Positions 17,491 to 42,134 are shown, counted from the first letter of the stretch. The stretch is 64,000 nucleotides of DNA from an uncultured Acidobacteriota bacterium (GCA_963717075.1 CAVQVI010000002.1:30402-94401), one strand, 5' to 3'. Numbers and translations: made by a program. The notes: a model not told the origin generated them from the letters alone.

Positions 17491-17633
17491 ACAATCAGTG
17501 AACAATTTGCTCCCGAACACCGGGCAATACGAGCTAACAGCAGAAGGCTAAACCACTGAAGAACCAACAAGATAGACCACCTGCATTTCTGTTAACCGGA
17601 GGGTTGCTGGTTCGAATCCAGCCTGAGGAGCCA
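17487..17633 (+). repeat. att-like unit U1: GTGAACAAT x2 arm, 85-nt spacer, tRNA-Asn(GUU) 3' half (17589-17633)
   Basis: CTGTTAA-CCGGA-GGGTT-GCTGG-TTCGAAT-CCAGC-CTGAGGA-G-CCA, with no 5' acceptor strand or D arm upstream. Arm repeats at 17487-17495 and 17498-17506. Confidence 0.8.
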
Positions 17634-17644
17634 ACTTTCTTAGG

Positions 17645-17785
17645 TCTATTCCGGTCGCATGGGTGACAGTTTATTCCGAGCGCATAGGTAACACTTTCGG
17701 GCCGAAGGGATTCTCGATCGGTTCCAGCCGGCACACCTCGTCGTCGAAATAGCCCAAATCGTACTGCATGAAGGTCACGAGCACC
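17645..17785 (-). pseudogene. IS481-family transposase C-terminal remnant
   Basis: ..VLVTFMQYDLGYFDDEVCRLEPIENPFGPKVLPMRSE*, starting 10 nt after the tRNA half. Confidence 0.7.
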
Positions 17786-17920
17786 CGAGGCGGCGCGAAC
17801 GCGTACTTACACCCCGACGCAGCCACGTGTAGAACGGAGATAGGACGGCGGCGAGAATACCGAGATGCGCGAGGACTCCGATCAGGAGCGCGCCGGTCGC
17901 AAGCGCCGCTGGAATTCCGA

Positions 17921-18479
17921 TCACGTTGACGGCGCCTCGGCAAGGACGAAGTGAAGGTCGTTCATCGCGACTGGCCCCCGGCTGACGACATTCAAGCCTG
18001 CATCTTCGAAGAGCACCACGACATCCGCCGGCGCGACGTGACCGTGACGATGAAAATGGGCGAGCAGCCCTTTGGGGGGTGGCGCGGTCGAAGTCGACGC
18101 CCAGGACGCGGCCGCCAGTCTTCAGCACCCTGCTGATTTCGCCAGCGCATTCCTGGCGCGTCGCCCTCGGCAGGTGGTGCAGCATCATCGTGCTGAGCAC
18201 CAAATCGAAGCGGTTATCCGCAAACGGCAGCCGCTCGACGACTGCCACCTGGAATGCGGGCTTCAGACCGGCTGTCGCGGCCTTCCAGCGCGCCCTGACG
18301 ACCATCTGCGGCGACGCATCGATGCCGACGACAGAACCTGACAGGCCGACGCGTCGAGCCGCGGCGATCGCGAGCGTCCCCGTGCCGCAGCCCACATCAA
18401 GCACCGACTCTCCCGGTTGCACGTGGGCAAGCTCCAGAAAGCGCTCGCGCAGCTCACGCTCTCTCCCTCGAGTCAGCAC
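17921..18479 (-). pseudogene. class I SAM-dependent methyltransferase, frameshift at G6 run 18074-18079
   Basis: VLDVGCGTGTLAIAAA (motif I). After ..VLGVDFD the frame shifts to PPKGLLAHFHRHGHVAPADVVVLFEDAGLNVV.. Confidence 0.7.
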
Positions 18480-18662
18480 CCAAGCGAGCAGGTCGTAGCG
18501 AGCGGCCCCAGTGTATGACGAAGCCCTTGGTATGTGGTGTTGCTTCCGGGTGCATCACGCTGCGCATTCCTTCAGCGTAGACTTGATCTGCCGCTGCGGC
18601 CGGACAGAGTCGCGCGATAGTGCGATACCGAACAATTCGGCCGCGATGTTCGTTTTTGTCTG

Positions 18663-39407: not shown

Positions 39408-40505
39408 TCACGGCTTCTGAGTTGTAGGACGAGGCTTGGCCTTCTGCTGCGCCTTCTCCTTCTCCATCGCGCGCGCACCGGCCAGGATGCTCGTCATCGC
39501 GTAGTTGCCTTCATGGCACGACGACTCGTAAATCTGATTGGCTTTCTCATCAGCCTTCGTCAGCGGAACTTCGATCGTCCAAGGCCGGGTGAACGTGGTC
39601 GGGTCCTCGATCGTCGCGCGGAAGATGATGAGATCCGGGCCCTCCCGCGTGTACCGTTCGGTCAGGTGCAGGTTCTGGCTGGAGCCCTGGAAGTTCGTCT
39701 TTTCCGAGAAGTTCGTGATGTCGACGACGAGCGTATTGCCCTCCCATTTGCCGCGGGCGTCGCCGAGATATTGACGCACGTCCGGTGGGAGCTGCGGGCG
39801 ATTGCCGATCGGGATGGCACGATACACTCCGCCGGCATGGCCATCTTCGTGGAACATCGCCACCTGTCCTGGCGCCTGCACGATGCGTCGGACGCCGGAC
39901 GAAACGCCTGTGATGAATGGCAGCGCGACGCCGAGGCATCGATCAGACCCGGGTCTCGACTCCGGATTGTCTGAGGGGCCGGCGTCTCCAGTCTCATTCT
40001 CGAGATTGCGCCTGAACGAGGCCGCCCGCTTCTCGCCTTCGGCGGTCCGAGCGGGAATCCTGCCGTCGGGTGGATCGATAATCAGCGACGTGCGCTTGGT
40101 TCGGATCACGCGTTCGTGCGCGCCGCCCTTGCTGAACGCTTGATTGTAGGCCCCCGCGAGATCCGCTTCGGTACCCCTCTCGGCACGTGCGCGGCCCCCG
40201 GCGCCGTCTCCGCCAAATTGTGTGGCGTGCGCGCGCTCGAGCGCGACCACCTCCTCGTCGGTGAGAAACTCCTTGAGCGCGAGCTCCTTCGGACGTTCGA
40301 GCGGCGTAAACACGTACCCGACACTCCAGATGCCCCCGATATCCGGATCGCCCCATGACGTCCGCGCGAGCTTCCAGTTGGTCGGCGCGCTTAGCGACTT
40401 TTGACCGGGTGCGCCCGATTGGCCGGCAAGATGAACGGTCACTACGCCTACGCTCAAGACGAGCAACGCAATGAGCGTTCTGTGAGGCTGAATACGCATG
40501 GTCAA
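39408..40505 (-). CDS. exported protein of unknown function, paralog P1
   Basis: Signal peptide. Family motifs WGDPDIGGIW, PLERP, FLTDEE, TSLIIDPPDGRIP, DRCL, GDARGKWEGNTLVVD, ERYTR, DPTTFTRPWT, YESSCHEGNYA. Confidence 0.8.
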   Translation of the reverse strand: MTMRIQPHRTLIALLVLSVGVVTVHLAGQSGAPGQKSLSAPTNWKLARTSWGDPDIGGIWSVGYVFTPLERPKELALKEFLTDEEVVALERAHATQFGGDGAGGRARAERGTEADLAGAYNQAFSKGGAHERVIRTKRTSLIIDPPDGRIPARTAEGEKRAASFRRNLENETGDAGPSDNPESRPGSDRCLGVALPFITGVSSGVRRIVQAPGQVAMFHEDGHAGGVYRAIPIGNRPQLPPDVRQYLGDARGKWEGNTLVVDITNFSEKTNFQGSSQNLHLTERYTREGPDLIIFRATIEDPTTFTRPWTIEVPLTKADEKANQIYESSCHEGNYAMTSILAGARAMEKEKAQQKAKPRPTTQKP

Positions 40506-41207
40506 TGATCCTTTCCCGATACGCAGACCGTCTCGACAGCGCTTTGGCTAATAGCCTCGCGCCCAAGATGTTACACCTGCTCGGCCTCGCCTGCGCGTCT
40601 CGCAAGTGCAGACTCACGGTAGATGAGCCGCACGTCGCTGACGCCGGAGCAGCCGCACGACCAGCCTGGAGTCGACCATTGCCATCGATTTGTTTTCTGG
40701 ACACTTACTCGCAGATTCGCTATATGTTTGCCCATGCAAACAACCCTTGAAGGCAATGTCGCCGTCGTCACCGGTGGAAGGGCTCGGCAACGAACTCATT
40801 GACGGCCCACCGCCGATCGATGGCGTCCGTCGGATTCGCCGTCGACAGCGCCTCGGCGGGCTCCCCAATTATTACAGTCGCGCAGCCTGATGAGACCCGA
40901 GGATCGATTCGACGGCTCGCTCAACGACGGGACATTACGGGCCCATCAACTGCCGAGGCGATTACCGTGCTACGGTGGAACCCCCGGTCGTTAAGACGGT
41001 CCGCCAGATAGTTCGCACGCATTCTATACGTGCATGGTAGCGGCCTTCTTGCCGCAGTAATACCTCAGGCACAGATACTTCCGAAACCTCGATCGAGTTA
41101 TTGGACATTACGGGAACTCGCACGCAAAGACTCCAGAATGTCCGTGCAAATAGCACGGAACATTACGGGCCTTGACCAAACGTGAATTGTCATACAAAAT
41201 GTCATAC

Positions 41208-41459
41208 ATGAGAAAGGCCACCATCTCGATACGCGAGCTCCAGCAGAACCTCAAACGCGTCATGGCGCGAGTCGAGCGCGGCCAGGTGATCGAGGTCACA
41301 CGGCGACGCCGGCCGATCGCGCGGCTGGCTCCGTTGCGGTCTGCGGGTCCCCTGTCTCCATGGCCCGATCTCGACGAGCGTGCCCACGCGGTTTTTGGTG
41401 ACCGTGTCGTGAAGCCAGGCCCCTCGGCGATCGTCATTGAGAATCGTGGCGATTGGTGA
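41208..41459 (+). CDS. Phd/YefM-type antitoxin
   Basis: MRKATISIRELQQNLKRVMARVERGQVIEVTRRRRPIARLAPL. The track ORF starts at 41172. Confidence 0.75.
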   Translation: MRKATISIRELQQNLKRVMARVERGQVIEVTRRRRPIARLAPLRSAGPLSPWPDLDERAHAVFGDRVVKPGPSAIVIENRGDW

Positions 41460-41917
41460 TCACGTACGTCGACTCGAGCGTGCTCGTGGCAGTCTACGTG
41501 CCCGAGGGCTTCTCGAAGTCAGCCCGCCAGGTGGTGCGAGCAGTACGGCAGATACCCTTCACTCAACTTCACGAACTCGAGGTTCGCAACGCGTTTGAGC
41601 TGTTGGTGGGGCGCAACCTCATCACGAGGGAAGAGTGTCAAGCGATTCAGGCGCAGTTGGATGGCGACCTCGACAGCCAGCGGCTTGTGCGAGTGCCGCT
41701 GGATCTGGATGAGGTCTTCACGAGTGCAAGTGACCTCTCACGAACCTACACGGCCAGGTATCTCACTCGGAGCTTGGATTTGTTGCACGTGGCGGCGGCT
41801 CAGACGATCAGGTGTGCGACGTTTGTGTCGGCCGACGACCGTCAGCTTGCAGCCGCGAAAGCCACCGGCTGCAAGGTCGTGGATGTCAAGCATCGCGCTC
41901 GACGTGAGAAGTCGTGA
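41456..41917 (+). CDS. vapC: PIN-domain toxin VapC
   Basis: ITYVDSSVLVAVYVPE...HELEVRNA...SLDLLHVAAA...FVSADDRQ. GTGA overlap with the antitoxin. Confidence 0.8.
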   Translation: MITYVDSSVLVAVYVPEGFSKSARQVVRAVRQIPFTQLHELEVRNAFELLVGRNLITREECQAIQAQLDGDLDSQRLVRVPLDLDEVFTSASDLSRTYTARYLTRSLDLLHVAAAQTIRCATFVSADDRQLAAAKATGCKVVDVKHRARREKS

Positions 41918-41923
41918 TGGGAT

Positions 41924-42134
41924 GTTGCCCTTTTCTTGCCCTTTCGGTGCACCAAACAGCGGCAAATGGCAGCAAACGCAGGCACGAGGCGAAGGTCGAA
42001 GATCGGCGAGTTCACCCGAGTGATGGCGCGTGATCCGGCAATGTCCAGCACACGGCGGCAAGGAGGGCGGCTAAGGCGGTTTTTTCCGCCCGTTAACCGG
42101 AGGGTTGCTGGTTCGAATCCAGCCTGAGGAGCCA
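41924..42134 (+). repeat. att-like unit U4 (type-B arm) ending in tRNA-Asn 3' half (42091-42134)
   Basis: The arm differs from U1-U3 and matches 16447-16525. From GTTAACC to CCA it is identical to U1-U3. Confidence 0.8.

Follow-up and report, generated by a model that had tools for sequence, protein, structure and literature searches.

A 64,000-nucleotide (nt) stretch of DNA from a metagenome-assembled genome of an uncultured Acidobacteriota bacterium (GCA_963717075.1, CAVQVI010000002.1:30402-94401; below, the window means this whole stretch) contains four identical 3′ halves of a tRNA-Asn(GUU) gene in direct orientation, none of them preceded by a 5′ half. With a probability of about 0.85, we consider these repeats to be right attachment sites (attR), that is, scars of tyrosine-integrase elements that serially entered the anticodon loop of tRNA-Asn(GTT). 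Repeated integration at this site had been proposed in a reading of this DNA made from its sequence alone, without database searches (the sequence-only reading). The proposal is supported by the intact tRNA-Asn genes of relatives, by conserved arms that recur at these halves in other species, and by the presence of motifs from these arms beside tyrosine integrase genes. The four copies are located as follows.

17589-17633, plus strand: tRNA-Asn(GTT) 3′ half, copy 1; CT and the 43-mer (17591-17633), from the anticodon loop to CCA; exact match.
23530-23574, plus strand: tRNA-Asn 3′ half, copy 2 (43-mer at 23532-23574); exact match, identical to the intact genes of relatives.
28284-28328, plus strand: tRNA-Asn 3′ half, copy 3 (43-mer at 28286-28328); exact match, identical to the intact genes of relatives.
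42092-42134, plus strand: tRNA-Asn 3′ half, copy 4; the 43-mer is preceded by CC, not CT; exact match.

The 43-mer GTTAACC...GAGCCA (GTTAACCGGAGGGTTGCTGGTTCGAATCCAGCCTGAGGAGCCA) occurs in exactly four places of the 64-kilobase (kb) window, with no mismatches and always on the plus strand, as had been claimed. No other occurrence with up to three mismatches was found in the window, and the chance expectation, estimated from 100 shuffles, is zero. The block of identity spans 45 nt in copies 1-3, which have CT in common, and 43 nt in all four copies. It begins in the anticodon loop, between CT and GTTAA, and stops at CCA, with differing sequences on both flanks, as in the anticodon-loop sublocation class of tRNA attachment (att) sites (Williams 2002, as represented in PMC4383910 and PMC9897764).

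The absence of a 5′ half at any copy, also claimed earlier, is confirmed by several searches. ARAGORN makes no tRNA calls in the window, and hence the intact tRNA-Asn is indeed not in it. Rfam yields no tRNA matches in the window, the halves included, at the gathering score or at E ≤ 1, and no RNA family or structure signal at the halves was found at either threshold. The 5′ half of tRNA-Asn of this clade (TCCTCAGTAGCTCAACGGCAGAGCATCCGGCT) has no matches in the window at up to three mismatches, and a local-alignment scan of the window for degenerate tRNA-Asn copies identified none besides the four.

Since Rfam gives no match to the halves, the tRNA identity of the repeat rests on its exact match to intact genes of relatives. 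For this comparison, one genome per species was scanned for the exact 43-mer, which yielded at least 115 genome stretches; a scan of viral contigs gave no matches. Among the matches listed, which is the scope of all counts of 43-mer copies below, most stretches come from metagenome-assembled genomes labelled Vicinamibacterales, Vicinamibacteria or Acidobacteriota. The analyzed 118 copies, the ones from the window included, comprise 72 intact tRNA-Asn genes and 46 bare halves, and 72 of the 118 carry TCCTCAGTAGCTCAA(C/T)GG(C/T)AGAGCATCCGGCT upstream. ARAGORN identifies the intact genes of relatives as tRNA-Asn(gtt), and the 43-mer is exactly their last 43 nt, CCA included, that is, a terminal fragment of the kind considered by Islander. 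By this match, the 43-mer is assigned to the 3′ half, from the anticodon loop to CCA, of the tRNA-Asn of Vicinamibacterales (Acidobacteriota), the lineage of the window. The repeat is neither a genome-wide miniature inverted-repeat transposable element (MITE), a possibility considered in the sequence-only reading, nor is it borne by an insertion sequence (IS): no inverted repeats flank the copies, their upstream flanks belong to unrelated families, and in all of the at least 115 stretches the sequence belongs either to a tRNA-Asn gene or to a half displaced from one.

In relatives, the complete arrangement of an intact tRNA-Asn, an element and a displaced half, all in one orientation, is observed in loci L047 (0.94 kb), L076 (2.4 kb), L056 (3.8 kb) and L116 (3.9 kb), and also in L084+L010 (9.2 kb), L097+L120 (8.7 kb) and L098+L053 (10.2 kb). 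Arrays of three halves are present on contigs CAVRYF010000003 and CAWJAP010000020. Decay is seen elsewhere as well, in the form of arms followed by halves with one or two mismatches (L043, L117) or of arms with no half (L105, L057). This comparison shows tRNA-Asn as a major integration hot spot across Vicinamibacterales, a poorly studied uncultured soil lineage.

All four halves have a conserved sequence directly upstream, which we call an arm. Copies 1-3 have arm A, approximately 115 nt long, in which TGAACAAT occurs twice at an interval of 11 nt, at about -104/-93 (-103/-92 at copy 1). Copy 4 has the approximately 175-nt arm B, which opens with GTTGCCCTTTTCTTGCCC and is rich in GGCGGCAA repeats. 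The arms were identified by nhmmer profiles made solely from arms of other species (E from 1e-17 to 1e-42 for the matches at the four copies); in other species, about 20 halves are fronted by arm A and about 13 by arm B. Two more arm remnants, with no half after them, were also identified.

17475-17588, plus strand: arm A, subtype A1, element-side arm of attR, copy 1; nhmmer E 4.8e-18; TGAACAAT at 17488-17495 and 17499-17506.
23426-23529, plus strand: arm A, subtype A1, copy 2; nhmmer E 1.4e-17; identity 79% with the copy-1 arm, 80% with that of L068.
28171-28283, plus strand: arm A, subtype A2 (CTGAACAATCTCTGAACAAT), copy 3; nhmmer E 3.7e-31.
41917-42090, plus strand: arm B, copy 4; nhmmer E 1.6e-42 and alignment; 79% identical to the arm of L021, unrelated to arm A.
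16440-16526, plus strand: arm B remnant with an internal deletion; nhmmer, profile positions 9-75 and 140-180, and alignment.
46064-46126, plus strand: partial arm A, first half only (CAGTGACCAATCAGTGAACAA); nhmmer E 1.2e-08 and repeat family.

The arms in the window match foreign arms (identity 0.79-0.84) as well as or better than each other (0.52-0.79). In particular, the identity of the copy-1 and copy-2 arms is 0.79, while the best foreign arm matches them at 0.80. The copy-3 arm is 0.64-0.66 identical to those of copies 1 and 2 and 0.84 to the best foreign arms (L099, L059, L029). The copy-4 arm has 0.52-0.59 with copies 1-3 and 0.79 with the best foreign arm. As the window arms are no nearer to each other than to foreign arms, this comparison argues that three or more element lineages were acquired separately, and against duplication in place. 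Thus, of the earlier observation that the halves have no substitutions while the arms have diverged, the identity of the halves stands, whereas the arms are not one sequence diverged in place.

The sequence-only reading had noted that no intact integrase survives and that fragments remain at 36700-37200 and 39175-39314. Both fragments are real and have been mapped more precisely by means of a profile hidden Markov model (HMM) built from integrases adjoining tRNA-Asn in related loci.

About 36735-36959, minus strand: central fragment of a tyrosine integrase (the second integrase); HMM positions 226-296, E 6.7e-12.
39147-39314, minus strand: C-terminal 56 codons of a tyrosine integrase, the region of the catalytic Tyr; HMM positions 317-375.
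39130-39205, plus strand: fifth junction; GAGCCA, the last 6 nt of the half (39130-39135), then an attL-type flank with TGAACAAT at 39178-39185 and 39188-39195.

The C-terminal fragment is 87.5% identical to amino acids (aa) 351-406 of the integrase from L044 (tblastn, E 1e-25), which has the Pfam domain Phage_integrase. There is no further significant match to a tyrosine or serine recombinase in the window, and these two fragments are all that was found where Islander expects an integrase inside each islet. At 39130-39205 the window reads GAGCCA followed by ATCTCACTCAAATGGATTAGCGGCGC...TCTGAACAATTCTGAACAATTC, colinear with the sequence after the tRNA in L044, where CCA is followed by ATCTTTTCAATGGATTAGCGGCGC...TCTGAACAATTCTGAACAATTCGGATCCGAC. 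This segment is a fifth junction with the half trimmed to 6 nt. Given this junction, with an integrase C-terminus at 39.13-39.31 kb, the longest islet is a composite of at least two elements. Hence, the earlier division into islets of about 5.9, 4.8 and 13.8 kb agrees with the copy-to-copy spacings (5941, 4754 and 13806 nt), but the 13.8-kb islet is not one unit. The array also extends beyond the proposed limits of 17.6-42.1 kb, because arm remnants without halves are located at 16440-16526 and 46064-46126, that is, at 16.44 and 46.06 kb.

The two arm types may be linked to integrases by common motifs. TGAACAAT occurs once or twice also 40-60 nt past the tRNA, between it and tyrosine integrase genes of the L042/L044/L108 type, while GTTGCCCTTTTCTTG, the opening motif of arm B, occurs 50-70 nt past the tRNA beside integrases of the L017/L025/L061/L085/L107 type. 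Thus, as at lambda-type att sites, a short repeated motif is found on both sides of the core near an integrase gene. Since one motif on both core sides resembles arm-type integrase sites, we infer that arms A and B probably pair with two tyrosine-integrase subfamilies.

Downstream flanks of the halves tell a different story. Approximately 150-240 nt are common to the sequences after copies 1 and 2 and occur again at 61813-61874; their minus strand encodes the C-terminus of a DDE transposase. The similarity after copies 1 and 2 is a remnant of an IS481-family insertion sequence. The features identified downstream of the halves and at related junctions are the following.

17636-17782, minus strand: IS481-family right end and the last approximately 37 transposase codons, after copy 1; terminus 9 nt past CCA; tblastn aa 352-388 (transposase of a Rhizobium IS); nhmmer E 4.8e-49.
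23576-23813, minus strand: IS481-family remnant, transposase aa 314-380 and right end, after copy 2; terminus 9 nt past CCA; tblastn and nhmmer.
61813-61874, minus strand: IS481-family right-end remnant; nhmmer E 6.2e-15 and tblastn; abuts the second copy of an 824-nt repeat (described below), with neither arm nor half.
16527-16537, plus strand: CTCCAGAAACC, left end of an IS110-family element; same junction as in L057; only 11 nt of the element remain.
28334-28455, plus strand: flank C, a conserved non-coding sequence of approximately 125 nt, left end of the element after copy 3; nhmmer E 4.1e-13.

Intact IS481-family copies of approximately 1.25 kb with 45-50-nt inverted repeats were found on Rhizobium plasmids; their transposase contains the Pfam domains LZ_Tnp_IS481 (leucine zipper), HTH_32, rve and rve_3. 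At both Rhizobium loci, the IS is adjacent to a complete tRNA-like sequence of the opposite strand (Arg-CCG and Ser, assigned by eye only), a few nt beyond the 3′ end of this sequence. The IS481-family terminus is located 8-10 nt (mode 9) past CCA in 21 of the 118 copies of the 43-mer, 11 intact genes and 10 halves, window copies 1 and 2 among them. The downstream similarity of copies 1 and 2 is therewith assigned to an IS481-family element that targets tRNA ends, rather than to an island arm. Literature searches for a tRNA-end target preference of an IS481-family element found nothing decisive. The halves themselves were also considered as a terminal region of a DDE transposon; this was rejected, as the IS end lies 8-10 nt outside CCA and, in Rhizobium, beside intact tRNAs of other kinds. 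An IS481-family element is also listed at 53381-53653 of the window and at L001 2035-3220 and L002 2002-3215.

In L057, a 1.73-kb element is interposed between arm B and the half, precisely at the point where ...CT would meet GTTAACC; the same element is present in L060. Judged by its sequence, the approximately 497-aa open reading frame (ORF) of this element looks like an IS110-family transposase. The coordinates of this IS110-like element are 1419-3152 (minus strand) in L057 and 2221-3962 in L060, and its ends are CTCCAGAAACC... and ...GTTTCTG.GTTCAGC...TTCGCT. The junction at 16527 of the window, with flank D and the sequence CTCCAG, had been a candidate for a precise deletion of a half, which was rejected because it is the end of the IS110-family element.

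In at least 13 other stretches, flank C is located after a tRNA-Asn that is either intact or a half (compared with L065, L050, L048, L093, L075 and L100). In relatives, flank C (TAAGATCAATAAAATCAA...GGCCGCACTGGACGATTTCCGCAACTGGCTG) is followed by variable cargo and has no adjoining integrase. Partial inverted copies of its last approximately 40 nt occur at 36710-36750 and 39101-39150, beside both integrase fragments of the window.

Moreover, each of the four halves has a type II toxin-antitoxin pair just ahead of its arm.

16830-17490, plus strand: VapB/VapC pair before arm A of copy 1; Pfam VapB_antitoxin and PIN; NCBIfam VapC NF047959, 118 bits.
22629-23321, minus strand: RelE/ParE-family toxin (22959-23321) and its 107-aa partner before arm A of copy 2; NCBIfam TIGR02683, 81 bits.
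27441-28147, plus strand: Phd antitoxin and PIN toxin before arm A of copy 3; Pfam; NCBIfam TIGR01552.
41172-41917, plus strand: Phd antitoxin and PIN toxin before arm B of copy 4; Pfam and NCBIfam.

The source names for the 107-aa partner at copy 2 are 'transcriptional regulator / DNA-binding phage protein'. In relatives, L047 contains (1013-2027, minus strand) a 0.94-kb mini-island from an intact tRNA-Asn to a half, with only a 108-aa and an approximately 94-aa ORF plus arm A. This two-gene cassette, read as a putative toxin-antitoxin pair, is also carried by the 8.7-kb element L097+L120, at its arm-A end. Elsewhere, some arms are preceded by toxin-antitoxin-like ORFs and many are not (ORFs were inspected by eye, too noisy to count), and the pattern of a pair before the arm is claimed for the window only. 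As neither the 43-mer nor the arm motif is present in loci L003-L008, which have an identical antitoxin, the pair of this antitoxin moves independently.

Based on these observations, the history of the array could be as follows. The attachment site of each element (attP) brings its own copy of the tRNA 3′ half (PMC4383910). Upon integration, the new half joins the tRNA gene and the old one is shifted to the far end of the element, and hence serial integration produces an intact tRNA followed by an element and a half, another element and a half, and so on (PMC4383910, and Williams 2002 as cited there). In the window, at least three lineages would have inserted, with arms A1 (copies 1 and 2), A2 (copy 3) and B (copy 4), as the arm comparisons suggest, and a further A-type element would now be represented just by an attL flank and the integrase C-terminus at 39.13-39.31 kb. 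An IS481-family element would have landed by copies 1 and 2, at the site where the integrase end of the next element is expected, and an IS110-family element at the boundary between CT and GTTAAC of another scar, at 16.5 kb. Deletions may then have taken the integrases, some of the halves and the larger part of both insertion sequences, with the later decay of the IS481-family element possibly removing integrases too. The toxin-antitoxin pairs persist beside the scars, presumably since their loss was counter-selected. The order of events, the toxin-antitoxin-driven retention and the deletions caused by the insertion sequences are the conjectural parts of this scheme.

The scheme may also account for the perfect identity of the halves. 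A half carried in attP has to be able to restore a functional tRNA, and one in the active gene is itself in use; either would be held to the tRNA sequence until it is displaced. As the 43-mer is invariant across the order, zero substitutions are expected despite the 21-48% divergence of the arms, with no need for selection in place. Hence, they are best explained by constraint on the tRNA copy of each element before integration, and not by unusual conservation in place.

Several points weigh against this interpretation. The intact tRNA-Asn that should head the array is not in the 64-kb window, and the full signature of the tRNA gene (tDNA) plus its fragments is seen in relatives, not in this genome. 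Within the islets, neither an intact integrase nor a complete left attachment site (attL) arm is preserved, and the action of integrases is deduced from relatives. The pairing of arms with integrases rests on common motifs, as no complete element with both an arm and an integrase was recovered, and many arm-A elements elsewhere are also devoid of an integrase. Moreover, mis-joins at repeats are possible in a metagenome-assembled genome, and, as the comparison set was gathered by an exact match to the 43-mer, the counts of exact and decayed halves are biased.

One observation in relatives has a bearing beyond the window. In several relatives, the sequence after tRNA-Asn belongs to the end of a gene for a large serine recombinase of approximately 509 aa, which runs antisense through the whole 43-mer with the stop codon in the anticodon loop (L035, about 3700-5249; L009, L034, L046, L080, L086, L103, L104; L124-L203). 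A metagenome scan identified hundreds of its relatives, and 71 untruncated loci were examined. A tRNA that overlaps the gene at its 3′ end or abuts it is present in 48 of these, most frequently tRNA-Asn (38 loci), but also Gln, Ser, Glu and Asp, even at 45-50% protein identity. This runs against a 2014 paper (PMC4383910), according to which no serine integrase is known to target tRNA genes. Literature searches for serine integrases targeting tRNA genes found nothing decisive.

Other explanations of the array have to be weighed against serial integration of tyrosine-integrase elements. A local segmental duplication of the unit of toxin-antitoxin pair, arm and half, or gene conversion, would make separate integrations unnecessary. 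Indeed, copies 1 and 2 have the same arm subtype (A1), their IS481 remnants both terminate 9 nt past CCA, and the two copies with their flanks are 79% identical over approximately 300 nt, and a toxin-antitoxin segment of 824 nt is doubled at 97% elsewhere in the window. However, even these two arms, at 0.79, are no closer to each other than to the arm of L068 from another species (0.80), while the arms of copies 3 and 4 differ (0.52-0.66) and match foreign arms at 0.79-0.84; the toxin-antitoxin families and the gene contents of the islets differ as well. Besides, the 21% divergence of copies 1 and 2 in place predicts about nine differences per 43-mer, and none is seen, which makes duplication improbable. 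It is also quite improbable that the halves were made by the large serine integrases, with the gene ending inside tRNA-Asn, instead of tyrosine integrases. Such a recombinase (Resolvase, Recombinase and Zn_ribbon_recom domains) adjoins tRNA-Asn in at least nine related stretches, its frame crosses the whole 43-mer with TAA of GTTAAC as the stop codon, tRNAs are found at its gene end in the above 48 of 71 metagenome relatives, and in L129 a 9.8-kb island separates tRNA-Asn from a displaced half. Yet the window has no remnant of it apart from the tRNA-encoded tail itself, all recombinase fragments in the window are of the tyrosine type, the arms A and B share motifs with flanks of tyrosine integrases, and the sole mapped island of the serine type has another arm (common to L129 and L058), unlike A or B.

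The last two explanations are hardly tenable. Intact tRNA-Asn genes could have been split by the IS110-family element between CT and GTTAAC, with the later loss of the 5′ halves, given that the element sits exactly at this point in L057 and L060 and that its 11-nt end is found at 16527-16537. But its right end (...GTTTCTG.GTTCAGC...TTCGCT) precedes none of the four halves, all of which have arm A or B ahead, no 5′ half exists in the window, and in L057 the element has arm B on one side and the half on the other, so that it must have entered an existing scar. Equally remote is the explanation that the halves are functional RNAs, decoys or substrates of the neighbouring PIN/VapC toxins, kept identical by selection. 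VapC toxins are tRNases, PIN-toxin genes are found 100-175 nt upstream of three of the halves, and there are no substitutions in 172 nt. On the other hand, the copy-2 pair is of the RelE/ParE type and on the opposite strand, a conserved arm always separates the pair from the half, and in other genomes the ORFs upstream of arms, inspected by eye, are not consistently toxin-antitoxin-like. Halves with one or two mismatches and arms without halves exist, and there is no RNA family or structure signal.

A broader hypothesis, which we regard as speculative and on the whole unlikely, is that the tRNA-Asn 3′ half is a common landing pad of four mechanistically unrelated recombination systems, the halves staying perfect as working attachment or decoy sites, so that the array would be a self-extending trap sparing the working gene. 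The four systems would be the two tyrosine integrase families, the large serine integrase, the IS110-family element (at CT of the anticodon loop) and the IS481-family element (9 nt past CCA). If true, its serine-integrase part would contradict the published view, in which tRNA genes are targets of tyrosine integrases only (PMC4383910, 2014).

Other features of the window are consistent with a history of mobile elements or stand apart from the array. A direct repeat of 824 nt, 97% identical (45226-46049 and 60987-61808), encodes a Phd-family antitoxin and a 147-aa partner without a family match. Its first copy is followed by the partial arm A and the second one by the IS481 end (61813), and the pair resembles the two flanks of a single earlier junction. 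The region after copy 4 is island-like, with RibD_C, HxlR and PIN genes (Pfam). A segment of approximately 575 nt in it (42348-42923; a gene with the RibD_C domain and the start of the HxlR gene) is 95-97% identical to loci of several other species (L075, L013, L056 and L089), and in L056 a part of this segment directly follows the tRNA, which suggests recently exchanged cargo. Three paralogous ORFs of 360-390 aa with approximately 65-70% DNA identity are located on the minus strand at 39408-40505, 46419-47507 and 52108-53292; the first two were scanned against Pfam and gave no match. Inverted repeats of approximately 150 nt (75%) at 3811-3964 and 10012-10162 bracket about 6 kb, with a transposase-like N-terminus at 10075-10452, and could represent the termini of another mobile element. 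An additional Phd/PIN pair is found at about 2900-3582, and a direct repeat of approximately 65 nt (92% identical, with a 34-nt exact core) at 2394-2456 and 44717-44781, 42 kb apart.

The array is the standard signature of tDNA islands in tandem, in a long and heavily eroded form, and hence is of a known rather than a new kind. CIME-type elements (cis-mobilizable elements) of Streptococcus thermophilus are integrase-less, flanked by att sites and accrete in tandem. As in such tandem accretion and in other tandem or composite islands (PMC2297512, PMC2717098, PMC8978831), elements in the window are stacked at one site with repeated att cores between them, and some units have no recombinase; in tandem islands, too, toxin-antitoxin modules are tied to island retention (PMC8978831). 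Unlike them, the units in the window, from an uncultured Acidobacteriota, are far more eroded, with pseudogenes and IS remnants, and do not have both arms intact, which makes mobilisation in trans doubtful. In particular, while a CIME has a complete attL and a complete attR, here the attR arms are intact, IS481 remnants follow copies 1 and 2, and copy 3 is followed by no more than the 125-nt flank C.

With the tDNA islands described by Islander/TIGER (PMC4383910; attR fragments, PMC9897764), the array has in common the 3′-terminal tRNA fragment in direct orientation, the anticodon-centred site class (from the anticodon loop to CCA), the conserved arms, and the tyrosine integrases adjacent in relatives. 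It differs in that the intact tDNA is outside the window and the islets here have no integrase, so that the Islander filters would reject every islet. Arrays of this length are rare in Islander, which lists only four of three or more among 3919 islands, each island with its own integrase (PMC4383910), whereas the array in the window consists of four exact fragments and at least three further remnants. In Klebsiella pneumoniae, tRNA-Asn genes are also recurrent island sites (asn tDNA hot spots, PMC4891358), but there several asn tDNA copies carry different islands, in contrast to the serial array at one site in the window, whose elements and integrases, so far as they were compared, are not related to those of Klebsiella.

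For annotation, this means that the four repeats are not tRNA genes, and that the region at 16-62 kb is an eroded island graveyard and not core genome, which integrase-based island finders would miss. It also provides a picture of how stacked islands decay: insertion sequences homing to tRNAs land at the integrase end, the integrases are gone or fragmented, and the toxin-antitoxin pair and the scar remain.

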